Shown: piece by piece, positions 4,145-64,000 of the stretch
How positions within the stretch are numbered: position 1 is the first letter of the stretch
Layout: every line of letters begins with the position of its first letter
Origin: Flavobacteriaceae bacterium
GTDB taxonomy: Bacteria > Bacteroidota > Bacteroidia > Flavobacteriales > Flavobacteriaceae
Direction: 5' to 3'
DNA: 64,000 nucleotides
Assembly (NCBI GenBank): GCA_029938265.1
Contig: JAOZVI010000002.1
Coordinates: 1,945-65,944 of the forward strand
Translations under genes and position numbers: made by a program
The notes under the pieces: generated by a model
What the model saw: only the letters and a program-made list of their open reading frames with translations
What the model was told of the DNA's origin: nothing
Databases searched by the model: none

Positions 4145-6199
4145 ATGAATTCATTTCAACAACAAATCACACAAGGAATTCCGGATATATTACCGAATCT
4201 AAAACCCTATAATAAAAGTTTAAATCACGCTCCCAAGCGAAAAGATATATTAAACACAGCCGAAAAAGAGCTGGCTATTCGAAATGCATTGAGATATTTT
4301 GATAAAGAGCATCATTTGGTTTTGGCAAAAGAATTTGCTGATGAATTGAACAAATACGGTAGAATTTATATGTACAGATTTATACCAGATTATGAAATAT
4401 ACGCCCGTCCAATTGATGCATATCCGGGTAAAAGCAATCAGGCAAAAGCCATTATGCATATGATTCAAAATAATTTGAATTTTTCTGTGGCTCAACATCC
4501 TCATGAATTGATAACCTATGGTGGTAATGGTGCTGTTTTTCAAAACTGGGCACAGTATCTATTGACCATGAAGTATTTGTCCGAAATGAATGATGAACAA
4601 ACTTTGGTGATGTATTCCGGACATCCAATGGGTTTATTTCCTTCACATAAAAATGCGCCGAGGGTAGTTGTTACCAATGGTATGATGATTCCAAATTACT
4701 CTAAACAAGACGACTGGGAAAAATTCAATGCCTTGGGAGTTACCCAATATGGACAAATGACAGCGGGTAGTTTTATGTATATCGGTCCGCAAGGAATTGT
4801 ACACGGTACAACGATAACCGTTCTAAATGCAGGAAGGAAAATTGCAAAAAATGGTGAGAATCTGGCAGGTAAGATTTTTTTAACTTCTGGTTTAGGAGGC
4901 ATGAGTGGTGCACAGCCAAAAGCTGGAAATATTGCAGGCTGCATTACTGTTTGTGCCGAAATAAATCCTAAAGCCGTTTACACTAGACATTCGCAAAATT
5001 GGGTTGACGAAGTTATTGAAGATCTGGATGAGCTTGTACAAAGGGTTAAAAAAGCTAAAAATAATAAAGAAATCGTTTCCATTGCCTATCAGGGAAATAT
5101 TGTAGATGTATGGGAAAAATTTGATATAGAAGATGTTTATATCGATTTAGGAAGTGATCAAACTTCTCTGCATAATCCTTGGGCTGGGGGATATTATCCT
5201 GTTGGTTACAGTCTTGAAGAAGCAAATGAAATGATGACAAACAATCCTGAGAAATTTAAGGAAAAAGTTCAGGAATCACTACGTCGTCAAACGGATGCTA
5301 TCAACAAACATACAGCAAAAGGCACTTACTTTTTTGATTATGGAAATGCATTTTTACTAGAGGCTTCGCGTGCAGGTGCAGATATATTTTTAAAATCACC
5401 AACTTTTCAAAATCGCAAAAACCCTCCAATTTCAAGAGGAGCAATTGGTGTTAATGAATTTGCCTATGCATCCTATGTTGAAGATATCATGGGACCCATG
5501 TGCTTTGATTTTGGTTTTGGGCCTTTTAGATGGGTTTGCGCTTCCGGTGACCCAAAAGACCTGGCTAAAACAGATCAGATTGCTACCGAAGTTTTAAATG
5601 ATTTGATGAAAAATTCTCCTGCTGAAATTCAGCAGCAAATGAATGATAATATTCAATGGATAAAAGGCGCTCAGGAAAATAAATTAGTTGTAGGCTCACA
5701 AGCAAGGATCTTATACGCTGATGCCGTTGGAAGAATTAAGATTGCCGAAGCTTTTAATCTTGCCATTAAGAATGGTGAATTATCGGCACCTGTTGTTTTG
5801 GGTAGGGATCATCATGATGTATCCGGCACAGATTCTCCTTATCGGGAAACCGCTAATATTTACGATGGATCACAATTTACAGCCGATATGGCTATTCATA
5901 ATGTTATAGGCGATAGCTTTAGAGGTGCAACCTGGGTTTCTATTCATAATGGCGGTGGAGTTGGATGGGGAGAAGTTATCAATGGGGGCTTTGGTATGGT
6001 TCTTGATGGTACTGAGGAAGCAAGCAAACGATTAAAATCAATGCTATTTTGGGATGTTAACAATGGAATTAGCAGACGAAGCTGGGCTCGCAATAAAGGT
6101 GCTGTAAATACAGCAAAACGAGCTATGAAGATGGAACCAAATTTAAAAATTACGATACCCAACACTGTTGATAATACATTGCTTGAAAATTTATTCTAA
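4145..6199 (+). CDS. hutU: Urocanate hydratase (long Bacteroidota form)
   Basis: ELITYGGNGAVFQNWAQY, GQMTAGSFMYIGPQGIVHGT, GLGGMSGAQPKA and GPFRWVCASGDP motifs. Confidence 0.9.
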   Translation: MNSFQQQITQGIPDILPNLKPYNKSLNHAPKRKDILNTAEKELAIRNALRYFDKEHHLVLAKEFADELNKYGRIYMYRFIPDYEIYARPIDAYPGKSNQAKAIMHMIQNNLNFSVAQHPHELITYGGNGAVFQNWAQYLLTMKYLSEMNDEQTLVMYSGHPMGLFPSHKNAPRVVVTNGMMIPNYSKQDDWEKFNALGVTQYGQMTAGSFMYIGPQGIVHGTTITVLNAGRKIAKNGENLAGKIFLTSGLGGMSGAQPKAGNIAGCITVCAEINPKAVYTRHSQNWVDEVIEDLDELVQRVKKAKNNKEIVSIAYQGNIVDVWEKFDIEDVYIDLGSDQTSLHNPWAGGYYPVGYSLEEANEMMTNNPEKFKEKVQESLRRQTDAINKHTAKGTYFFDYGNAFLLEASRAGADIFLKSPTFQNRKNPPISRGAIGVNEFAYASYVEDIMGPMCFDFGFGPFRWVCASGDPKDLAKTDQIATEVLNDLMKNSPAEIQQQMNDNIQWIKGAQENKLVVGSQARILYADAVGRIKIAEAFNLAIKNGELSAPVVLGRDHHDVSGTDSPYRETANIYDGSQFTADMAIHNVIGDSFRGATWVSIHNGGGVGWGEVINGGFGMVLDGTEEASKRLKSMLFWDVNNGISRRSWARNKGAVNTAKRAMKMEPNLKITIPNTVDNTLLENLF

Positions 6200-51151: not shown

Positions 51152-52027
51152 TTAATCAATTTTATAGATAATCGGATTAAAAGCTTTTGAAGCGATTATA
51201 ACTTTGTCTCCAATATTCAATTTTTTAGATTCATCGGCATCAGCTACAACTTTAATAATTTCTTTACCTATTAAAACGGTAATGATAAATATAAAATCTT
51301 GATTAACCATTGCCAGAATTTCACCGTGAAGTTGAAATTTTCCACTTACTTTATTATGTGTTAAAACCTTTGTTGGCAATCCTTGTTTGATTATTTTACC
51401 ATGATCTAACTCAATCAGATAATCTGACATTTTAATAATTTCAGAAATATCATGACTGATCAATATTGTTGTTAAATTAAACTCTCTATGTACTTGTAAA
51501 ATATACTGTTGTAATTTATTGCGAATTTCAAAGTCTAATGCAGATAATGGTTCGTCTAACATTAATATTTCTGGCTTTTGCACCAATGCTCTTGCTAAAG
51601 CCACGCGTTGCTTTTGTCCACCCGAAAGTGTGTCAGGTTTACGAAATTGTAAATCACCTAAGTCAACTATTTCAACTAGTTCTTTAACAAAACCATCATC
51701 TTTATTTTTTCCAAGGGCAAAATTTAGATTTTCCAAAACTGTCATATTAGGAAACAAAGCATATTCCTGAAATACAAAACCAATTTTTCTTTTTTGAGGT
51801 GGGACATTTATTTTTTTTTCGGTATCTAACCAAAAGATGTCATTTACTATTATCTTTCCCTGATCTGGATTCAGTAAACCAGCTAAAATTCTGAAAATTG
51901 TTGTTTTTCCCGCTCCTGATTTTCCATATAAAGTAACTAGCTGCCCTTTCTGAATTTCAAATACAACATCCAATTGCATGTCCCCAGACGCAGATTTTAA
52001 CCTTTTTTGTAATAATACCGAAATCAT
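51152..52027 (-). CDS. modC: Molybdate ABC transporter ATP-binding protein with a C-terminal TOBE domain
   Basis: Start moved to the ATG at 52027, giving an ATGA overlap with the modB stop. GKSGAGKTT, LSGGQKQRVALARAL and LLDEP motifs. Confidence 0.85.
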   Translation of the reverse strand: MISVLLQKRLKSASGDMQLDVVFEIQKGQLVTLYGKSGAGKTTIFRILAGLLNPDQGKIIVNDIFWLDTEKKINVPPQKRKIGFVFQEYALFPNMTVLENLNFALGKNKDDGFVKELVEIVDLGDLQFRKPDTLSGGQKQRVALARALVQKPEILMLDEPLSALDFEIRNKLQQYILQVHREFNLTTILISHDISEIIKMSDYLIELDHGKIIKQGLPTKVLTHNKVSGKFQLHGEILAMVNQDFIFIITVLIGKEIIKVVADADESKKLNIGDKVIIASKAFNPIIYKID

Positions 52028-52695
52028 TGCCAAAATCTTTTTAAATACCCACCATTAACTAAATAAACAAACAATAAGATCATAAAAGTAATCCCAAATA
52101 AAATAAGAGAGTACATATTGGCCACATCATAATTTAAAGTTTCTACTTCATCATAAATAGCTATTGATGCTACTTTTGTTTTTCCGGAAATATTTCCCCC
52201 AATCATTAAAACCACACCAAATTCTCCAATAGTATGTGCAAATGCTAAAATTATACCTGTTAATAAAGATGGGCGAATATTGGGTAATAAGACCTTAAAA
52301 AGTGTTGTGAATTTTGATTTCCCCATTACGTATGCAGCATCTTTAAGAGAAGTGGATAGGTTATTGAAACCTGATTGTATGGGATGCACCATAAAAGGTA
52401 AACTGTAAAATATTGATGCCAACACCAATCCTTCAAATGAAAAAACAAAACGTAAACCAAACCACTCGTCTAACCAATTTCCAAAAGCATTTGACGGACT
52501 AAAAGCAATTAACATATAAAAACCTAAAACTGTTGGTGGTAAAACCAAAGGCATACTAACCAAAGTTTCTATAACAGGTTTTATCCTTGATTTGGTGTAC
52601 GCCAACCAATATGCCAAAGGAATTGAAATTACCAACAACAATAATGTTGTGATAAGTGCTAATTTAAATGTTAAGATTAAAGGAGACCAATCCAT
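52024..52695 (-). CDS. modB: Molybdate ABC transporter permease
   Basis: Five to six transmembrane segments and an EAA-like loop (DAAYVMGKSKFTTLFKVLLP). Operon context. Confidence 0.85.
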   Translation of the reverse strand: MDWSPLILTFKLALITTLLLLVISIPLAYWLAYTKSRIKPVIETLVSMPLVLPPTVLGFYMLIAFSPSNAFGNWLDEWFGLRFVFSFEGLVLASIFYSLPFMVHPIQSGFNNLSTSLKDAAYVMGKSKFTTLFKVLLPNIRPSLLTGIILAFAHTIGEFGVVLMIGGNISGKTKVASIAIYDEVETLNYDVANMYSLILFGITFMILLFVYLVNGGYLKRFWQ

Positions 52696-53093
52696 TATTC
52701 AGATAGCATTAATTCATTGGTTTTTATCATTGCAGTAACCATTTTTCCTAACTGCAAATCTAATTGATTTACCGCATTTGTAGTGATGATCGAAGTAATA
52801 TTTCCAACAGATGTTTTTATGACCAATTTACTCAGTAATTTATCAGACTCAATTGATATAATCTCTCCATAGAATTTATTTTGCAAACTTATTGAGCAGT
52901 TAATTGCATTGGCAATGATCACTTCATTTTCTTTAAAAATAACCTTAACGGAATGGTTTGGTCTTAAATAAGATGATGTTTGAGGTGTATCAATTACAAT
53001 AGTTGTTAGCTTAATTTCTCCTGCTTTTAGTTTTACCAAAGACAATTCGCCATTCACATTAACCGACACTATTTTACCTTGAATTATATTCAT
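52695..53093 (-). CDS. Tandem TOBE (di-Mop, molbindin-like) molybdate-binding protein
   Basis: Two repeats of about 65 aa, each N.I.G.I..I.....S.V.L......L...IT......L.L..G..V.A.IK. Located between modA and modB, with a 1-nt TAATG overlap with modB. Confidence 0.7.
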   Translation of the reverse strand: MNIIQGKIVSVNVNGELSLVKLKAGEIKLTTIVIDTPQTSSYLRPNHSVKVIFKENEVIIANAINCSISLQNKFYGEIISIESDKLLSKLVIKTSVGNITSIITTNAVNQLDLQLGKMVTAMIKTNELMLSE

Positions 53094-53858
53094 TTAATCA
53101 TTTACTGAATAGCCAAAATTATTTAAAATTTCTTTACCTTTTGAAGAAATTAAAAATTCATTGAATTTTTTTGCTTTATGTAGTAGCTCTTTTCTGTTGA
53201 TCAGGATCACTATTCCCTGTGCAATGGGCGAATATAGATCAGGATCAATATCTATCCAATTATTATTGTCTTTAATTTTAGGTGCCATTACAACCGATTT
53301 TGCAGTAAACCCGATCTCAGCAACTCCTGAAGCAATAAATTGATTGGTTTGTGATACACTTTCTCCAAAAACTAATTTATTTTCAATTTTATGGTAGATA
53401 TCTTTATTGATCAAAACCTCTTTTGCAGAAAAACCATAAGGTGCCGTTTTGGGATTTGCCAAAGCAATATTCTTTATGTGTTTATCTTCTAAAATCTCAA
53501 ACGAAAGTTTAATATCCTTTCTCATAGTCCACATAACCAATTTACCATAAGCATAAATTTCTGGTTGTTTTAAAGTAAATCCCGATTTATACAATTCGTT
53601 TGGGTATTTCATATTTGCAGAAACAAAAATATCATAGGGGGCTCCTTCTTTAATTAGTGCAGTTAATTTTCCTGAAGAGCTGATCACCATTTCACAGGCA
53701 ATCTCAGTTTCCTTTTCAAAGGTTTGAATAATCTCTTTCATAGCAAACTGCATATTGGCCGCTGTTGCAATGGTTAATTTTGGTTGTTCATCTTTTTTAC
53801 AGGACAAAAAGAAAAAAATTAAAGAAAAAAAGATGAAGAATTTTTTAAAATAATTCAT
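53094..53858 (-). CDS. modA: Molybdate ABC transporter substrate-binding protein
   Basis: Lipobox FFLSC. IATAANMQFAM...SSSGKL...DIFVSAN...PYG pattern. Confidence 0.85.
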   Translation of the reverse strand: MNYFKKFFIFFSLIFFFLSCKKDEQPKLTIATAANMQFAMKEIIQTFEKETEIACEMVISSSGKLTALIKEGAPYDIFVSANMKYPNELYKSGFTLKQPEIYAYGKLVMWTMRKDIKLSFEILEDKHIKNIALANPKTAPYGFSAKEVLINKDIYHKIENKLVFGESVSQTNQFIASGVAEIGFTAKSVVMAPKIKDNNNWIDIDPDLYSPIAQGIVILINRKELLHKAKKFNEFLISSKGKEILNNFGYSVND

Positions 53859-53903: not shown

Positions 53904-54587
53904 TTAATCTTCAGGTGATAAATATTTATAAACCAATCCGGCTAAAATTGCACCTAAAATTGGAGCTACCCAAAACAACCATAACTGATCCATTGCCCAT
54001 CCGCCAACAAAAAATGCCTGACTTGTACTACGCGCCGGATTAACTGAAGTATTGGTTACGGGAATACTAATCAAATGAATAAGGGTTAACGCTAATCCTA
54101 TTGCGATTCCAGCAAAACCAACAGGTGCTTTTGAATGTGTTGCACCCAAAATAACGATCAAAAACATAAAGGTCATTACAATCTCTGTCAATAAAGCTGC
54201 GAACATTCCATAACCTCCGGGAGAGTTTTCTCCATAACCATTGGCAGCGAAACCTCCTAATTCAAATCCTTCCTGACCCGTAGCAATAAAATATAAAATT
54301 GCTGCTCCTGCAATTCCACCTAAAACCTGAGAACCGATATATGGTAACAGATCTTTTTTATCAAAACGACCTCCAACCCACAAACCAACAGAAACTGCCG
54401 GATTAAAATGAGCACCGGAAATATGCCCTAAAGCATAAACCATAGTCAAAACAGTTAAACCAAAAGCAAAAGCAACACCAACGAAGCCAATACCCAAATC
54501 AGGAAATGATGCTGCAAAAACAGCGCTTCCACAACCGCCTAATACTAACCAAAGTGTACCGATAAATTCTGCAACTAATTTTTTCAT
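53904..54587 (-). CDS. aqpZ: Aquaporin Z
   Basis: Two NPA boxes (HFNPAVS, SVNPARS). [21 protein letters not shown]-terminus. Confidence 0.92.
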
Positions 54588-58756: not shown

Positions 58757-59587
58757 TTAAAGTAATTTAATCCCATCATTGTAAATATCTATAATCTTTT
58801 GTTTGTATAAATTTCCCAAACTTCTTTTAAAAGCCTTTTTGCTCAATCCTAATTGATGTTTAATATCATCCGGAGTACTTTTATCTGTCAATTCTAAAAA
58901 TCCTTCATTTTGTTTTAATGCTGTTAGAATAATTTCAGAATTTTTATCAATACTTTTTTTATACCCAATAGGCTCTAAAACAATATCAATTTTTCCATCT
59001 TCTCTTACTTGCTTTACATATCCTTTTATCTTGTCTCCGGGATTTAAATTCTTGTGAATATCAGATGTAAAGATCAATCCATTATATTTATTATTCACGA
59101 TCGCACTCATCCCAATGTCGTTCATTTTATACAATAAAAGATCTACTTCGTCTCCTTGTTTTATGCCTATATCATTATATACTAAGTACTTACTAATTTT
59201 ATTTGATCCAAACAATTTATTATTTTTCTCATCTTTCAGCATATATATAATATACCAATTTTCTTCTTTCATTCTTTCTTTTTGCTCATCATAAGGAATC
59301 ATCAGATCCTTTGGCAAACCCCAGTCCATAAAAGTTCCGTGTTTACTGATCTCTCTTACCTTTAAATAAGCAAATTCTCCTAATTGAATATTTGGTTTTA
59401 ATGTAGTTGCTACAATACGATCTTTGGCATCTTTATAAATAAAAACCTCTTTATCATCATCAATATTTAATTCTTCATTCACTAATGTTCTTGATAAAAA
59501 TACCTCATTCTTTTCTTCATCCTGAAGTTCGTAGCCATACTCAGTTTTCCTAACTACTTTAAGTTTATTTATTATTCCAATTTCCAT
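58757..59587 (-). CDS. S1-like RNA-binding protein (CvfB/YitL family)
   Basis: Repeated S1-like segments and a C-terminal winged-helix-like tail (LGLSKKAFKRSLGNLYKQKII). Confidence 0.7.
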   Translation of the reverse strand: MEIGIINKLKVVRKTEYGYELQDEEKNEVFLSRTLVNEELNIDDDKEVFIYKDAKDRIVATTLKPNIQLGEFAYLKVREISKHGTFMDWGLPKDLMIPYDEQKERMKEENWYIIYMLKDEKNNKLFGSNKISKYLVYNDIGIKQGDEVDLLLYKMNDIGMSAIVNNKYNGLIFTSDIHKNLNPGDKIKGYVKQVREDGKIDIVLEPIGYKKSIDKNSEIILTALKQNEGFLELTDKSTPDDIKHQLGLSKKAFKRSLGNLYKQKIIDIYNDGIKLL

Positions 59588-59601
59588 ATTTTCTAGTGAA
59601 A

Positions 59602-61506
59602 TTATCTCAATTTATAAGCATCAAATTTTTCTAAAGTATCCGGATTAACTACCTCTACTTCTATGTCTTTACCATTAACCTGAAATAATACTAAAGCATT
59701 TTGAGTAGAAAAACCTGTAACTTTATCTGTCCATGGAGTCTGATCCTGAGCGTAATAAGGAGCACCTGCGGCACCATTATTAATTTGATAAATTGTTCTG
59801 CTTAATTTAATCTTTTCCGGTATGTAATTTTCAGGGTAGATATTGGTTTCTGGTCCAATTTCAGTTCTGCAATAATTATGTTCATCACCGGTTAAAATAG
59901 CAATTACCTTAGTGCTTTTATTTACAAAAAGATCCAACAACTGGTCTCTTCTTTCAATAATTCCTTTATCAAGTGGTTTTCCTGCAACCCATGATCTGGG
60001 TCCATTTTTCCCATTATACCACATATCATCACCTACATGACCTCCATTGGGGAAAAAAGGTGTATGTTCAGTAATAAAAATATGATCAATATTTTTATCT
60101 TTTTCAAGCTTATGGATTGTTTCAGTAACCCAATTAAACTGATTGTCCATTATATAAGCGTGCAATCCTCCACTTGTAAATGGTATTAATCTACCTGAAG
60201 GCGCATAAAAATAATTTGAATTCATCACAACTACAGCAACGTTATCATAGGTGTAATAAAAAACATTTTCCTCATATGAAGGAAAATCAATTTTATTTGG
60301 ATCAGGATCATATTTTGCTCCATCCTCACTTGAAGGTCCGTTTTTTGGATTTACAAAATTATTTGCAAAAACAACTTCAGCCGACTCCGTTTCAAAAGGA
60401 AATCTATCAACATAAGCCCTGAAATTATTTTCTTTACCTTCAAAGATCTTACTTAAAGCTTCATGATTTCCCATACTTATATAAACAGGGAAATAATGTG
60501 TAAAAGGTTCAATTGCTCTTTTCCAGTTGGCATATTGCAAATTCATTTGATCTTTATCAGTTAAATATCCATTGATCAGATCTCCGGAAAATTGCATAAA
60601 ACTTATATTTTTATATTTTGCCAATGCCATGATCTTTTTCATGATATAAAAATTTACTCCATGAATATTTCTTTCTCCCCCTCCTTTACCATTTCTGGAA
60701 TCACTTGCATATGCAAATAAAAATGGTTTTCGTGCACCTGAATTATGTGCTGTTCTAAAACTGTAATCCTGAGTAATATTACCAACACTTACTATGTAGT
60801 TATACTCTTTATCAGCTGATAATCCTGTGATCTTGATCTCGTGATGTGTACCATTTTTAGAAGTATGATCTTTACCATCAATAGTAATTTTAACTATAGC
60901 GGACATATTTGTTTCAAGAGAAATTGTAGCTCCGTCAGCAGTTACTAAATTTATAAACGGACCTTCAATAATAGTGTTATCTACTTCAAAAATGCCATCT
61001 TTAAATAAAAAAGAAACTTTTCCATCATATAAAATATCACCCTTTTCATTGAGTACCCGATAACCAAGTGTTCCCATTCCACTCTTCTCCCATCCGATCA
61101 TATCGAATGTTCCTCTCATTGATTTAATATTAATATTGGTCATACCCTTACTAATTGTTGATAATTGCCTGAAATAAACTGGCATTGGGTGTTTTGAATC
61201 TCCATAAGGTATAAATCCGTAATATAAAAAACCACTAAAATCTGGAATTCCAAAATTAAATTTTATTCCTTTGGCAGTACCTGCCGGACTACCTTTTAGA
61301 TTAGTTAAAGTATAATCGGCTTTATGATCTCTCTCATAGTACCTTATACTGTCTTTTTCTATATAATACTTACCTTGTTCATCTTGATGAATATTGGTGT
61401 AAACCGAAGGAATATTAGTCTCTTTATTAATTTGACCAATTGTTTTGTAGGAAAAAAGTATTAAAATAAAAATACTTAAATACCTGGTTGTTAAGCTAAA
61501 TTTCAT
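59602..61506 (-). CDS. Secreted metallophosphoesterase (calcineurin-like)
   Basis: Signal peptide. GDLINGY, GNHE, TEH and GDEHNY motifs. Confidence 0.75.
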   Translation of the reverse strand: MKFSLTTRYLSIFILILFSYKTIGQINKETNIPSVYTNIHQDEQGKYYIEKDSIRYYERDHKADYTLTNLKGSPAGTAKGIKFNFGIPDFSGFLYYGFIPYGDSKHPMPVYFRQLSTISKGMTNINIKSMRGTFDMIGWEKSGMGTLGYRVLNEKGDILYDGKVSFLFKDGIFEVDNTIIEGPFINLVTADGATISLETNMSAIVKITIDGKDHTSKNGTHHEIKITGLSADKEYNYIVSVGNITQDYSFRTAHNSGARKPFLFAYASDSRNGKGGGERNIHGVNFYIMKKIMALAKYKNISFMQFSGDLINGYLTDKDQMNLQYANWKRAIEPFTHYFPVYISMGNHEALSKIFEGKENNFRAYVDRFPFETESAEVVFANNFVNPKNGPSSEDGAKYDPDPNKIDFPSYEENVFYYTYDNVAVVVMNSNYFYAPSGRLIPFTSGGLHAYIMDNQFNWVTETIHKLEKDKNIDHIFITEHTPFFPNGGHVGDDMWYNGKNGPRSWVAGKPLDKGIIERRDQLLDLFVNKSTKVIAILTGDEHNYCRTEIGPETNIYPENYIPEKIKLSRTIYQINNGAAGAPYYAQDQTPWTDKVTGFSTQNALVLFQVNGKDIEVEVVNPDTLEKFDAYKLR

Positions 61507-61541: not shown

Positions 61542-61952
61542 TTAAAAAGATTTAAAAACTCTGGCTAATGAAAATCCTGGTGCATCTACTTGCAGATCTA
61601 AAAAATACCCAAAGGGAGTTTGAGCAACTTCATATCCAACATTTTTTAATCTTTCTTCAACACTGTTAAAAATTCTTTGAGTTGTATCCGGATCGGCTTT
61701 ACTTTCAGACAAATGTGCAAATGAATGTAAAACTACTTTTTTTGAATTGTTTTTGCCACAAACCCATTTAATATTCTTTAATAGTTTTTTAGAAACTTCA
61801 GCCTCTCTTTCAATATCATTTTCTTCAACCTGAACAAAGGCTGTTTGCACATTCTCAAATGAGGCAGGAACATTATTTACTTCCGCCATTTCCAATGTTT
61901 TTAAAGTTGGCGTATAAGCAAATATTTTACAATAGATCAGTAATACTTTCAT
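61542..61952 (-). CDS. Stand-alone homologue of the archaeal ThrRS N-terminal editing domain (tRNA-Thr_ED, DTD-like fold)
   Basis: MKVLLIY... first strand, VVLHSFAHLSESKADP and TPFGYFLDLQVDAPGFSLARVF. These align by eye with the motifs I recall from the archaeal editing domain (..LLIH.., PFAHLSS, PFGYYK). Confidence 0.6.
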   Translation of the reverse strand: MKVLLIYCKIFAYTPTLKTLEMAEVNNVPASFENVQTAFVQVEENDIEREAEVSKKLLKNIKWVCGKNNSKKVVLHSFAHLSESKADPDTTQRIFNSVEERLKNVGYEVAQTPFGYFLDLQVDAPGFSLARVFKSF

Positions 61953-62068
61953 AGAATTAAGGTTTAAAATTTAGAGACTTTTATAAAAGACTCATTTAAT
62001 ACAAAATAAAGATAATACAACTATTCAAAGTATATTATCTTTATTTATAATTATTTAATAAAAAGTAT

Positions 62069-62407
62069 TTAATGGTCACATAAATTATCACCATCCTGTA
62101 GTTGATCAGCTAAATATTTTTCCACAAGCACTTCGGGTTTATCAGAATCAATTCCCATAAAAACTTCGATATTATTTTGGGTAAAAACATCCTTTGCTTT
62201 TCCACCCATACCTCCTGAAATAATCGTACTGACTCCTTTTTCAGCTAAAAACCGTGGATAAGTTCCCGGCTGATGAACAGGAGGGGTGAAAAATTCAACA
62301 TTTACTATTTTTTGATCTTCTGTCTCAACTACAGCAAATTGTTCACTATGACCAAAATGCTGACATAATTTTCCGTTGATTGTCGGAACTGCAAATAATT
62401 TTTTCAT
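62069..62407 (-). CDS. NifB/NifX/NafY-type (dinitrogenase FeMo-cofactor-binding family) small protein
   Basis: CQHFGHSEQFAVVE...FLAEKGVSTIISGGMGGKA...IEVF pattern, 112 aa. Confidence 0.75.
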   Translation of the reverse strand: MKKLFAVPTINGKLCQHFGHSEQFAVVETEDQKIVNVEFFTPPVHQPGTYPRFLAEKGVSTIISGGMGGKAKDVFTQNNIEVFMGIDSDKPEVLVEKYLADQLQDGDNLCDH

Positions 62408-62421
62408 TAATTTTAAATTAA

Positions 62422-62442
62422 ATATTTGTATTGTACAAATAT
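62422..62442. promoter_or_regulatory. 21-bp palindrome ATATTTGTA-TTG-TACAAATAT between the cupin and NifX-like genes
   Basis: Read directly: 9-bp perfect arms with a 3-nt centre. It fills most of the 36-nt intergenic gap. Confidence 0.35.
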
Positions 62443-62443
62443 C

Positions 62444-62767
62444 TTAATTCTTTTTAAAAGGATCCCAAAATATTAAAACTAATGCGCCATTTTCTGATTT
62501 AAAAGGTCCGTGCTCATCTCCAGAAGGAAAAATCTGATACGATCCAACAGGAAAAACTTCACCATCACTCATATATTCACCTTCTAACACAAAATGTTGC
62601 TCAGCAGTTATATGAGAATGTGAACCCATATGGAAACCTTTGGGTAATTTTAACAAAACCGTTTTACCATTTTCACCATCACGCAAGACTTTACTTTTTG
62701 TGCCTTTAGGGTAACCTTCAGCATCTTTCCAATTCAAATTTTCGAGTAAATTCATTTTTTTTCTCAT
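62444..62767 (-). CDS. Cupin domain protein
   Basis: GSHSHITAEQHFVLEGE ... GDEHGPF (two cupin motifs), 107 aa. Confidence 0.7.
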   Translation of the reverse strand: MRKKMNLLENLNWKDAEGYPKGTKSKVLRDGENGKTVLLKLPKGFHMGSHSHITAEQHFVLEGEYMSDGEVFPVGSYQIFPSGDEHGPFKSENGALVLIFWDPFKKN

Positions 62768-62805
62768 GATACATCTATTTATATTATACTTCCTTTTTAT
62801 CTTAT

Positions 62806-63246
62806 TTAATACTTCACCCTACAGCATTCTCCATGTCCAAAACCTCCGGCAAGATTCAATAAGTTCTTTGAATAACATTCCGGGCATTGGGTCATTGTCT
62901 CATTAACACTTAAATTATACATATGTCCACAATCAACACATTGAATAATATTTCTTCTAAAATGTATATTACCTCCATAAATTCTAAGCGACTTTCCATA
63001 AAAAATAAATTCTGCCATTTTCTTTCTAGATTTTTCTATCAATCTACTAAATGTAGGTCGGGATATTTCCATTTCTGCAGCAGCTTTCTCATGTGACATA
63101 CCTATAAGGTCAGCTAAACGTATCGCTTCAAACTCATCCAAATTAAGGATAATTTTTTCTGTGGATCTGTCTGATCTGCCAAACGGTCTAAACTCTGTAA
63201 AAAAAGGAGGCTGGTGTACAATTCTATTATTTTTTGGACGAGGCAT
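62806..63246 (-). CDS. DUF134 (UPF0251) family putative DNA-binding protein with a C-terminal Cys-rich extension
   Basis: MPRPKNNRIVHQPPFFTEFRPFG...LDEFEAIRLADLIGMSHEKAAAEMEISRPTFSRLIEKSRKK (sigma-70 region-4-like HTH), then CVDC...CPEC...ECC. Confidence 0.75.
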   Translation of the reverse strand: MPRPKNNRIVHQPPFFTEFRPFGRSDRSTEKIILNLDEFEAIRLADLIGMSHEKAAAEMEISRPTFSRLIEKSRKKMAEFIFYGKSLRIYGGNIHFRRNIIQCVDCGHMYNLSVNETMTQCPECYSKNLLNLAGGFGHGECCRVKY

Positions 63247-63275
63247 AACTGATTTTTACCATTAATACCTTAAAG

Positions 63276-63297
63276 ATAATGAACATATGTTCATTAT
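63276..63297. promoter_or_regulatory. Perfect 22-bp palindrome ATAATGAACAT|ATGTTCATTAT, a candidate operator upstream of the DUF134 gene
   Basis: Read directly. It lies 30 nt upstream of the DUF134 ATG and immediately downstream of a TATTTG -7-like hexamer on the minus strand. Confidence 0.45.
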
Positions 63298-63353
63298 GCA
63301 AATAATAATAAGAATTTTTTAAGAGCTTTATTATAGGAAAATAAAATAATGAT

Positions 63354-64000
63354 TTAATTTAGTTGATATGCCTTCCATTTTAGAGCAAAATCCTCATTGA
63401 TCAAAAAAGAGGCTTCTTTTTTATTTTCTGGATATGAATGAAAAGGATAGACCTCTTTTGTAGTATGATTACCCAACCAACCTGATTCTTCACTAATTGA
63501 TTGTGATTTAATTGATTTCTCATCCAATCTCTTATCCAAAGCAATTGAAAAGAAATCTCTTACCAATTGATCAGATCTACCTAAATTGCCATAATGATCA
63601 ACTTCAGGTTCTAATGCATAACACCATACTCCTCCCGCTACTCTGTTAGATAGTACCGCATTTTTGATGGCTTTATTTCGAAGTTGATTATCATACTCAC
63701 CAGCAAGCATTATACAAGGAATGCTTTTATTATTGACTGAAATATCATCAATATTACCACCTCTAATATTGGCAAATGCGATGACTCGATCTGGCTTAAA
63801 ATTTGAAAAATTAGTACTAAAAACTCCGCCTGCTGAATAACCTCTCATTACAAAAGGCAAATTACTAATATTTGAAAGATCATTTATTTCAGAAATCATT
63901 TCCAATGCTTTTACCAAAGCATCACCACTACCACCAGAAGCTTCAGCATAATAGGGAGATGAATCATCAAACGTTTTAAAATATACAGCCAAAATCGCCA
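63354..64000 (-). CDS. Alpha/beta hydrolase / esterase. The N-terminus lies beyond the right window edge.
   Basis: Nucleophile elbow GYSAGG. The frame remains open to position 64000. The TTG at 63992 used by the track is probably not the true start. Confidence 0.6.
   Translation of the reverse strand, partial: AILAVYFKTFDDSSPYYAEASGGSGDALVKALEMISEINDLSNISNLPFVMRGYSAGGVFSTNFSNFKPDRVIAFANIRGGNIDDISVNNKSIPCIMLAGEYDNQLRNKAIKNAVLSNRVAGGVWCYALEPEVDHYGNLGRSDQLVRDFFSIALDKRLDEKSIKSQSISEESGWLGNHTTKEVYPFHSYPENKKEASFLINEDFALKWKAYQLN

Follow-up and report, generated by a model that had tools for sequence, protein, structure and literature searches.

In Desulfovibrio, the orp operons encode the MinD-like proteins Orp3 and Orp4 with their two 4Fe-4S motifs, the NifX-like Orp8, and MrpORP, and their expression is controlled by a regulator that senses redox through an Fe-S cluster (PMC6345978, PMC8359166). 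MrpORP has a dimeric Di-Nase domain that houses a [3Fe-4S] cluster; in Desulfovibrio Orp8 homologues, the cluster is a Mo-Cu-sulfide one and is held non-covalently (PMC6345978). The tie of the ORP system to cell division is putative only. Another described relative of the locus reported here is the archaeal ThrRS editing domain, in which Tyr120, Lys121, and Glu134 are described as completely conserved; Lys121 places the catalytic water, and three archaeal domains were severely compromised by the K121M mutation (PMC4491819).

We analyzed a 64-kb stretch of flavobacterial DNA, called the window below, which contains a cluster of genes for a DUF134 protein, a cupin, a NifX-like protein, and a homologue of that editing domain (Table 1). 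The initial annotation had presented this cluster as the best candidate in the window for an undescribed system. Our analysis points not to a new free-standing system but to a slimmed-down derivative of an ORP-like gene set that is widespread. We consider it probable, though far from certain, that the cluster is an autoregulated operon, a reduced flavobacterial version of a DUF134/ORP-like regulon for Fe-S/metal-cluster handling and redox-stress protection.

Table 1. Coordinates of the cluster, its control elements, and the molybdate locus in the window
Feature	Position	Strand	Description
DUF134/UPF0251 gene	62806-63246	minus	146 aa; first gene; proposed autoregulator
Cupin_7 gene	62444-62767	minus	107 aa, single-domain
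NifX-like (Nitro_FeMo-Co) gene	62069-62407	minus	112 aa; type found directly after DUF134 in many loci
tRNA-Thr_ED gene	61542-61952	minus	136 aa; DTD-like fold; homologous to the N-terminal editing domain of archaeal ThrRS, here free-standing
A/U-rich hairpin	61997-62053	minus	within the 116 nt that separate the NifX-like and editing-homologue genes; inverted repeat, 21-nt arms, 86% complementary
Perfect palindrome ATAATGAACATATGTTCATTAT	63276-63297	none	22 bp, 11+11 nt; proposed operator
Palindrome core TGAACATATGTTCA	63280-63293	none	TGAACA-N2-TGTTCA
Presumed Bacteroidota-type promoter	63271-63302	minus	-33 TTTG at 63299-63302; -7 TATCTTTA at 63271-63278
Molybdate locus (ModA, TOBE protein, ModB, ModC)	51152-53858		7.7 kb from the cluster

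Layout of the cluster and its first three products

The initial annotation had read the cluster as four co-directional minus-strand genes, and the ORF coordinates agree, with intergenic gaps of 38, 36, and 116 nt in the 5' to 3' order of the cluster. Its four family assignments were likewise borne out by profile searches, all above the Pfam gathering cut-offs: DUF134 (PF02001) matched with 81.3 bits against a cut-off of 27 (E value of 7.9e-23), Cupin_7 with 53 against 27 (3.3e-14), Nitro_FeMo-Co (PF02579) with 68 against 26.3 (9.1e-19), and tRNA-Thr_ED (PF08915) with 134.7 against 30.2 (3e-39). GC content is flat at about 0.30 around the cluster, so that a recent horizontal insertion could be ruled out and the cluster is no recent insertion artefact. 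Folded as RNA, the hairpin upstream of the fourth gene reaches -20.8 kcal/mol (z = -3.8), and 0 of 200 shuffled sequences folded equally well. It is possibly a terminator or attenuator and may separate the fourth gene transcriptionally from the rest of the cluster. A search for Rfam families, including the Moco riboswitch, gave no match in 58 to 64 kb at E values up to 1. A co-directional Metallophos gene starts 35 nt past the fourth gene and is followed by a CvfB-like gene.

DUF134 is one of the low-numbered function-unknown families of Pfam, and a whole-word full-text literature search for DUF134/UPF0251 found no study of the protein itself. The window protein has a helix-turn-helix at its N terminus and a Cys-rich C-terminal module, composed of a CxxC...CPxC zinc ribbon and a GHGxCC motif. 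Residues 30 to 85 of the AF2 model are confident (block-mean pLDDT of 74 to 91), and in a structure search they superposed on ECF sigma region 4 and on a DeoR DNA-binding domain at 0.6 to 1.3 Å over 40 to 48 residues. The helix-turn-helix model fits sigma region 4 and DeoR domains in DNA-bound form. When the full-length structure was searched, no global match was obtained and the matches were confined to the helix-turn-helix; the C-terminal tail was modelled by AF2 with low confidence. Numbered directly from the window protein, residues C103, C106, C122, C125, H139, C142, and C143 were invariant among 30 homologues.

The NifX-like protein matched only the C-terminal Di-Nase domain of the NCBIfam MrpORP model (NF041136; 2.6e-33, model positions 266 to 365), its score of 115.8 lying far below the full-length cut-off of 450, and the two-domain architecture of that family was not found. 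The motifs HFGH[C/S]...PPxHxPG...GGMG...C[D/N]H are conserved in its family. The window copy has two cysteines only (C15 and C110) together with several conserved histidines, and in the flavobacterial copies a serine replaces the cysteine that most relatives have in the HFGHC motif. By analogy with the related MrpORP domain, this His/Cys-rich product would probably hold a small metal-sulfur cluster, of the Fe-S or another type.

The cupin harbors an HxH...E...H metal-site motif, with HSHITAEQH and GDEHGPF conserved in its homologues, and its product would form a metal site of the 3-His/1-Glu type. Like the cupin domain of the anti-sigma factor ChrR, it belongs to the Cupin_7 fold family and has a His/Glu metal motif. 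However, it has neither the N-terminal zinc anti-sigma domain nor the ECF sigma partner of ChrR, and it scored only 25.5 against the NCBIfam ChrR models, the cut-offs of which are 300 and 124.5 (the latter for TIGR02451).

The promoter palindrome and its recurrence

The perfect palindrome that the initial annotation had placed in the promoter region is 22 bp long and occurs once in the 64-kb window, against a chance expectation of 0.01 matches. It fills the 20-nt spacer between a -33 TTTG and a -7 TAnnTTTG, which correspond to the promoter consensus of Bacteroidetes. The same TTTG-N20-TAnnTTTG frame was found in five related loci (L032, L059, L064, L013, and L016). Upstream of the DUF134 gene, the core lies between TTTG and TAnnTTTG in all eight DUF134 loci inspected, and loci with the conserved core encode DUF134 proteins with an identity as low as about 63%. 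The core also precedes operons of the DUF5320-MinD/Fer4, cupin, NifX-MFS-editing-homologue, OYE, and peptide deformylase types. Across 79 related loci, we observed the exact core 8 times and the core with at most one mismatch 17 times, compared to 0 and 0.23 occurrences expected from Markov-1 simulations.

We also scanned metagenomes in an unbiased manner for the promoter plus core and recovered 74 contigs. The first gene downstream of the site was DUF134 in 45 of them, DUF5320 in 6, and a NifX-like gene in 2. Peptide deformylase followed the site in 5 (2 within 120 nt and 3 at 186 nt), and most of the remaining sites had their downstream side cut by contig ends. In 19 metagenome loci, a NifX-like gene came directly after DUF134. 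Conversely, no operator with up to two mismatches was present within 5 kb of the cupin/editing-homologue islands L171-L173, L011, L012, and L018. Because the core recurs before DUF134 genes in distant genomes as well as before other operons of the set, an autoregulated DUF134 regulon is indicated. Judging from sequence, the initial annotation's proposal that the module is autoregulated is plausible, the palindrome lying inside the promoter in 8/8 DUF134 loci and DUF134 coming first downstream in 45/74 metagenome matches. We propose DUF134 as the putative binder of the palindrome, an assignment made through adjacency alone.

An SOS origin of the palindrome was considered and excluded. Bacteroidetes LexA-like boxes read GGA-N5-TCC and CTAA-N5-TTAG (PMC8565304), and the palindrome is for this reason not SOS-controlled. 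The site could also be the operator of an unlinked regulator, for example a metal sensor of the SmtB/ArsR type, with DUF134 merely its first target gene. The TGAACA-N2-TGTTCA core with its A/T-rich 12-2-12 flanks does equal that of SmtB/ArsR boxes in the literature, for instance AATACCTGAACA-GA-TGTTCAAGTATT (PMC8790569), and an inverted-repeat core overlapping the promoter is a repressor-type layout shared with these systems. However, a phmmer scan of about 150 loci, with provisional query sequences as a caveat, detected no ArsR/SmtB homologue near any locus, and DUF134 is alone among DNA-binding proteins in being consistently beside the site; moreover, its helix-turn-helix is sigma-region-4-like and not a winged helix. 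Together with the exclusion of LexA, this makes control by an unlinked regulator quite unlikely in our judgment.

In our preferred reading, a DUF134 dimer would bind the palindrome through its sigma-region-4-like helix-turn-helix and block RNA polymerase. Its invariant C-terminal Cys6-His module would hold zinc and/or an Fe-S cluster, and the protein would come off the DNA when the redox state or the metal supply changes. Since the proposed operator is conserved, its promoter context clear, and the set of target operons defined, the function of DUF134 becomes directly testable.

The bacterial ThrRS editing-domain homologue

The AF2 model of the fourth product (pLDDT of 87) matched the P. abyssi and M. 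jannaschii editing domains (1y2q, 2hl1, and 4rrf) over its full length, with Foldseek TM scores of 0.83 to 0.86. The DTD-like fold is shared throughout with the archaeal domain, and the product has the same size, 136 aa, as the free-standing crenarchaeal editing domain of A. pernix, a Ser-tRNA(Thr) hydrolase. The SFAH motif, corresponding to the archaeal Phe81-Ala82 oxyanion-hole segment and His83, is kept; F78 and H80 hardly vary among 30 family members, and A79 is invariant in 30 closer homologues. In contrast, the archaeal Tyr120, Lys121, and Glu134 align with Phe117, Leu118, and Arg131 of this bacterial protein, and none of the 30 family members has a lysine at the archaeal 121 position. 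A further difference is that the bacterial homologue is located in redox/metal-cluster gene islands and not beside ThrRS. We also considered a metal site formed by His76 and His80 and dropped it. His76 aligns with Tyr79 of P. abyssi, a residue mutated in the design entries 4s0x, and its position is therefore probably buried.

A genome scan based on an alignment of 9 closer sequences gave at least 583 confirmed matches among species-representative genomes, and the free-standing bacterial family was not found in the literature searched. It is a sizeable family, and its member in the window has the archaeal fold but no Lys121. These homologues contradict the label "archaea-specific" and add to the DTD-like fold a branch that does without the lysine needed by the archaeal domains. 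The DTD-fold product, which traces back to the editing domain of archaeal ThrRS, probably keeps a pocket for a 3'-aminoacyl-adenosine-like ligand, and by its residues it would be unable to act exactly like the archaeal Ser-tRNA(Thr) editor.

Could this protein act on its own in translation quality control, deacylating aminoacyl-tRNAs in trans, with only a loose tie to the cluster? The full-length fold match and the retained (P/S)FAH oxyanion-hole motif would be in agreement with such a role, as would the upstream hairpin, which may set the fourth gene apart. In addition, a canonical D-Tyr-tRNA deacylase gene adjoins the editing homologue in three loci (L047, L058, and L077), and in 6 loci TrmO, which acts on tRNA(Thr) in E. 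coli, is encoded no more than 3 kb away. However, the lysine at position 121 is a leucine in the window protein and is absent from the 30 family members, and the genes most often found nearby encode an MFS transporter and a UbiE/CpaM-like methyltransferase (16 loci each), with NifX-like genes next in frequency. Furthermore, if up to two mismatches are allowed, 15 to 17 of the 78 loci carry the editing homologue in a co-directional run under an operator-like site. An independent deacylase thus seems unlikely to us. As to its partners in the cluster, the NifX-like and editing-homologue genes adjoin in L018 with a gap of 19 nt, and a cupin is found within 3 kb of the editing homologue on the same strand in 4 of the 78 loci, FeS_assembly_P proteins being excluded.

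ORP-like arrays and known systems

Genes of the four families are linked elsewhere, as a neighbourhood comparison showed. In the Bacteroidales MAG loci L032, L059, L063, and L064, they form one co-directional array per locus, in the order DUF134, DUF5320, (a small Fer4), a NifX-like gene, two MinD/ParA-Fer4 genes, a second NifX-like gene, a pyridine-nucleotide disulfide reductase, (cupin and OYE), the editing homologue, a methyltransferase, and onwards. The L063 array contains all four window families, at 58 to 64% identity, and the other three contain three of the four. Cupin homologues are also found inside operator-headed ORP-like operons (L113, L144, L106, and L090) and in ARMT1/CGGC/radical-SAM/ArsP_2 islands. 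The cupin island is present in the Lutibacter sp. assembly GCA_021647475.1, and chromosome OY762280.1 is an example of a complete genome with the set. Recurrent neighbours of the set are MinD-ferredoxin ATPases, FeS_assembly_P, a CoA-disulfide-reductase-like enzyme, an OYE flavoenzyme, and a radical SAM protein, and NifU_N, OsmC, and glutaredoxin occur in individual related loci. The neighbours are thus mainly Fe-S and redox-stress genes rather than molybdenum genes, and the full DUF134/ORP-like set is found in anaerobic Bacteroidota and their relatives. By tblastn, the 64-kb window contains no MinD-Fer4, DUF5320, or ARMT1 partners, and the role of the remnant may therefore differ from that of the full set.

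That four unrelated small genes were juxtaposed by chance is hardly credible. The exact gene order of DUF134, cupin, NifX-like, and editing homologue is seen in this species group only, prediction gave no terminator-like site, and unrelated genes continue the co-directional run, all of which would fit with chance. Against this, genes of these families occur together again in distant genomes, with a promoter/operator in common, and GC is flat. Taken with the operator data, synteny largely refutes chance.

The initial annotation had favored a module for a metal or metallocofactor, possibly molybdenum-related. The metal-cluster theme fits the neighbours; the molybdenum part does not, the partners being Fe-S/redox genes. 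A Mo/FeMo-cofactor module, in which the NifX-like protein binds a Mo-containing cluster and cooperates with the nearby molybdate uptake locus, would agree with the family name Nitro_FeMo-Co, with the Mo-Cu-sulfide cluster of Desulfovibrio Orp8 homologues (PMC6345978), and with the locus itself, which does lie at close to the 8 kb first given. However, the mod locus is not beside the NifX-like/editing-homologue pair in the flavobacterium L018, and no Mo, Moco, or nitrogenase/FeMo-co genes were present among the annotated recurrent neighbour families of about 150 related loci (78 + 74). Nitrogenase/FeMo-co biosynthesis families were likewise absent from the window ORFs scanned (46.7 to 64 kb), and no Moco riboswitch was detected in 58 to 64 kb. 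The best profile match of the NifX-like protein is a [3Fe-4S] binder, the MrpORP Di-Nase domain. On balance, we regard a molybdenum module as very improbable. The purpose of the operon would most likely be Fe-S/metal-cluster handling and protection in redox stress, and not molybdenum cofactor handling.

A broader view is conceivable, although we hold it to be on the unlikely side: DUF134 proteins with the Cys6-His module might be redox/metal-sensing repressors and the missing master regulators of non-Desulfovibrio ORP-type systems, acting at a TGAACA-TA-TGTTCA operator between -33 and -7, with a regulon that includes the hitherto unrecognised DTD-like branch, as a stress-regulated trans deacylase or adenosine-ligand hydrolase, and a peptide deformylase paralogue. 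If true, this would couple Fe-S/redox stress to quality control of protein synthesis.

Among known systems, the closest is the ORP cluster of Desulfovibrio vulgaris Hildenborough (orp3-4-5, orp7-8-9, and OrpR). Both have a small Orp8-like Nitro_FeMo-Co protein and a dedicated regulator, an Fe-S redox sensor in Desulfovibrio, and both are typical of anaerobes. Orp3/Orp4-type MinD/ParA ATPases with ferredoxin motifs are absent from the window and present in its related loci, namely the four Bacteroidales arrays and many metagenome loci. A four-gene flavobacterial remnant with ORP parts under another regulator narrows which parts can work alone. The C-terminal Di-Nase domain of MrpORP (Orp9) is the best curated profile match of the NifX-like protein, but the latter stands alone, with no P-loop NTPase domain attached. 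Unlike the D. vulgaris cluster, which relies on the sigma-54 enhancer-binding OrpR, the window has a DUF134 helix-turn-helix and a sigma-A-type -33/-7 promoter. It lacks MinD-Fer4 and Mrp/NBP35 genes and adds, in a flavobacterial host, a cupin and a ThrRS-editing-domain homologue.

Recurrence of the gene set in related loci

The initial annotation had described four co-directional minus-strand genes separated by gaps of 38, 36, and 116 nt, and we found ORFs in exactly this layout. Each Pfam match exceeded the gathering score taken as threshold, confirming the four family assignments (see table). The editing homologue, a free-standing relative of the archaeal ThrRS N-terminal editing domain, also gave a weak match to a P2-family phage capsid model (3.1e-4; 20.4 bits, cut-off 27), taken as spurious. 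The co-directional run extends past this gene into two further genes, common only to the closest relatives of the window's species. The ORF upstream of the promoter, which leaves the window, had no Pfam or NCBIfam match; its version in loci L001 to L009 encodes 313 aa (L numbers denote related loci from other genomes or metagenome contigs). Two features occupy the 116-nt spacer: a strong hairpin rich in A/U (folding energy -20.8 kcal/mol; z = -3.8) with U-rich sequence after it, and a second near-palindrome.

Features of the cluster and its surroundings in the window
Feature	Position	Strand	Details
Molybdate uptake set	51152-53858		complete: ModA-type binding protein, TOBE/molbindin, ModB, ModC
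MIP channel gene	53904-54587
Co-directional run past the editing homologue	58757-61506	-
Metallophos/purple-acid-phosphatase-like protein		-	634 aa; starts 35 nt after editing homologue
CvfB-like S1-domain protein		-	14 nt beyond Metallophos gene
Editing homologue	61542-61952	-	136 aa; tRNA-Thr_ED, E = 3e-39
Near-palindrome	61974-61993		GAGACTTTTAT/ATAAAAGACTC
Hairpin	61997-62053
NifX-like protein	62069-62407	-	112 aa; Nitro_FeMo-Co, E = 9.1e-19
Cupin	62444-62767	-	107 aa; Cupin_7, E = 3.3e-14
DUF134 protein	62806-63246	-	146 aa; DUF134, E = 7.9e-23
TAnnTTTG (-7)	63271-63278
Perfect palindrome	63276-63297		ATAATGAACATATGTTCATTAT; unique in window
TTTG (-33)	63299-63302
ORF upstream of promoter	63354-63992

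The same four genes were present in about 10 near-identical metagenome contigs and, with 99% identity, in a Flavobacteriia MAG (L017). In a second flavobacterial lineage (L018), just two of the genes remain, NifX-like and editing homologue, with 19 nt between them. Scanning an alignment of the editing homologue against one genome per species confirmed at least 583 relatives, the best 80 of which came mainly from anaerobic Bacteroidales MAGs, but also from Ignavibacteria, Chlorobiota, Calditrichia, and others. ORFs were then called and clustered, and neighbors on the same strand within 3 kb of the editing homologue were counted in 78 loci. These were NifX-like proteins (22 loci), UbiE/CpaM-like methyltransferases and MFS transporters (21 each), OYE-type flavoenzymes (10), radical SAM proteins (9), ARMT1/DUF89 and MinD/ParA-ferredoxin ATPases (7 each), TrmO and CGGC (6 each), FeS_assembly_P and ArsP_2 (5 each), and the window-type cupin (4). 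Four Bacteroidales loci (L032, L059, L063, and L064) share a long array of co-directional genes: DUF134, DUF5320, (small ferredoxin), NifX-like, two MinD/ParA-Fer4, NifX-like, CoA-disulfide-reductase-like, [cupin, OYE], editing homologue, methyltransferase, NifX-like, MBL, ARMT1, DUF4405, CGGC, CobA, and radical SAM. All four window families occur in L063, at 58 to 64% identity, and cupin homologues in three more genomes, one of them Lutibacter, lie among ARMT1, CGGC, radical SAM, ArsP_2, peptide deformylase, and OYE genes. The window cluster is thus a pared-down form of a recurrent set, no further members of which were found in the 64-kb window, and the initial proposal of a module is supported.

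Some Bacteroidales islands with the editing homologue additionally harbor a RACo-type reductive activator (L012, L023, L025, and L027; identified by Pfam in L012), others a CobA/BtuR adenosyltransferase (L020, L032, L063, and L090), and the top-scoring model for the commonest methyltransferase neighbor is CpaM ("corrinoid protein-associated"), with a score below the cut-off. Together, these neighbors hint at a corrinoid link. In L063, a window-type cupin and an FeS_assembly_P (DUF59) domain are encoded by a single ORF (5393-6034); the fusion may be genuine, or an artefact of the assembly or of a frameshift.

A palindrome within the promoter

The perfect palindrome reported in the promoter region was indeed found there. 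Its central inverted repeat, the core TGAACATATGTTCA, lies with at most one mismatch upstream of all eight DUF134 genes inspected. TTTG and TAnnTTTG flank it at a spacing of about 20 nt and match the -33 and -7 promoter elements of Bacteroidota. In other genomes, the core also precedes DUF5320-MinD/Fer4 operons (L075, L081, L083, and L094), NifX-MFS-editing-homologue operons (L043 and L044), the OYE gene of L073, and, with two sites, a cupin-headed operon in L090 whose last gene is the editing homologue. Across the 79 loci collected around the editing homologue, the exact core was observed 8 times and the core with up to one mismatch 17 times, against 0 and 0.23 expected from first-order Markov simulations. 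An independent scan with TTTGNATNATGAACATATGTTCA yielded 74 metagenome contigs, where the first gene downstream was DUF134 in 45, DUF5320 in 6, and NifX-like in 2, while 5 had peptide deformylase after the site (within 120 nt in 2, at 186 nt in 3); most of the others are truncated by contig ends. A NifX-like gene lies directly 3' of DUF134 in 19 of the metagenome contigs, and the order DUF134, cupin, NifX-like is confined to the window's species group. In 15 to 17 of 78 loci, an operator-like site (up to two mismatches) stands at the head of the co-directional run that includes the editing homologue, a lower bound since many contigs are short. The site does not occur everywhere: none was found within reach of six islands with cupin or editing homologues. 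We propose that this conserved palindrome serves as an operator embedded in the promoter.

DUF134 is the sole DNA-binding protein consistently beside the site. A helix-turn-helix is modelled with confidence and can be superposed on both the DeoR DNA-binding domain and sigma region 4 in its DNA-bound form, and a CxxC...CPxC zinc ribbon and a C-terminal GHGxCC are invariant in 30 homologues. As the site fills the promoter spacer, the classical position of a repressor, the most economical reading is that DUF134 represses its own operon. We therefore infer, in line with the initial annotation, an autoregulated module with DUF134 beside a conserved promoter-embedded palindrome. The binder might instead be an ArsR/SmtB-type regulator, as the core equals that of the SmtB/ArsR 12-2-12 boxes (PMC8790569). 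A search with approximate query sequences retrieved no ArsR/SmtB homologue in about 150 loci scanned. Bacteroidetes LexA-like boxes differ from the core (PMC8565304).

The same promoter/operator heads operons beginning with a peptide deformylase paralogue (L118, L151, L154, L167, and L168), followed by a CoA-disulfide-reductase/NADH-oxidase-like and a glyoxalase-like gene in L151 and L168 and by a DUF4405-like gene in L118 and L154; the L172 cupin island also contains a deformylase. Within DUF134 ORFs of L013, L032, L063, and L064, and more weakly L059, an operator-like TG[CT]GGACA[TA]ATGTTCA lies about 317 to 362 nt from the start and codes for the part of the zinc ribbon that reads CGHMF/CGQMF. 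The sequence could reflect codon constraint or a second site, and is not retained in the window DUF134, where the protein reads GHMY.

Predicted roles of the products

The editing homologue adopts the archaeal editing-domain fold over its full length (pLDDT 87, TM 0.83 to 0.86) and retains the FAH segment, which forms the oxyanion hole in the archaeal domain. Tyr120, Lys121, and Glu134 are replaced by Phe, Leu, and Arg; Lys is absent from the 121-equivalent position in all 30 bacterial family members compared. Since K121M severely compromises three archaeal domains (PMC4491819), the protein is probably not a plain archaeal-type Ser-tRNA(Thr) editor. DTD has Met at the Lys121 position, so deacylation is still possible with this fold. 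A tRNA-linked role may also be considered because dtd is adjacent in three loci and TrmO in several. The MFS and methyltransferase genes that are often found nearby point elsewhere. The canonical D-Tyr-tRNA deacylase gene dtd is next to or near the editing homologue in L047, L058, and L077 (also L073), placing two DTD-fold proteins side by side.

The NCBIfam match of the NifX-like protein (2.6e-33) is to MrpORP and is restricted to its C-terminal "Di-Nase" domain; MrpORP is the Mrp-Di-Nase protein of the Desulfovibrio orange-protein (ORP) set. Its family conserves HFGH[C/S], PPxHxPG, GGMG, and a C-terminal C[D/N]H, making a His/Cys-ligated metal or cluster likely. In flavobacterial copies, HFGHS replaces the widely conserved HFGHC and a Cys stands four residues upstream (LC[QA]HFGHS), which looks like a ligand shift. 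The cupin retains the metal motif HxH...E...H.

The metal-cluster theme agrees with the regulon neighbors, which, among the recurrent families annotated, are Fe-S and redox-stress genes and not Mo genes; for this reason we favor Fe-S/redox handling over the molybdenum involvement initially suggested. The molybdate uptake/molbindin locus noted near the cluster is present, adjoined by the MIP channel gene, and was not linked to the cluster genes in the other flavobacterial locus examined.

Comparison with the ORP system

In full-text literature searches, neither a functional study of DUF134 nor any article on tRNA-Thr_ED proteins of bacteria came up; the aaRS-editing literature examined places this domain in archaea only. 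The cluster does not belong, in the strict sense, to NifX/NafY, MrpORP, ChrR, or the archaeal editing domain. Among systems already studied, the ORP cluster of Desulfovibrio comes closest; in it, Orp3 and Orp4 are MinD-like with two 4Fe-4S motifs, Orp8 is NifX-like, and the MrpORP Di-Nase domain binds a [3Fe-4S] cluster (PMC6345978). Its expression is switched off as the redox potential rises, via an Fe-S-containing regulator (PMC6345978, PMC8359166). Unlike a Desulfovibrio-type ORP locus, the window cluster has neither MinD-Fer4 or Mrp genes nor sigma-54/OrpR control. In its working, it would resemble an ORP-type module that has been reduced and placed under another regulator.
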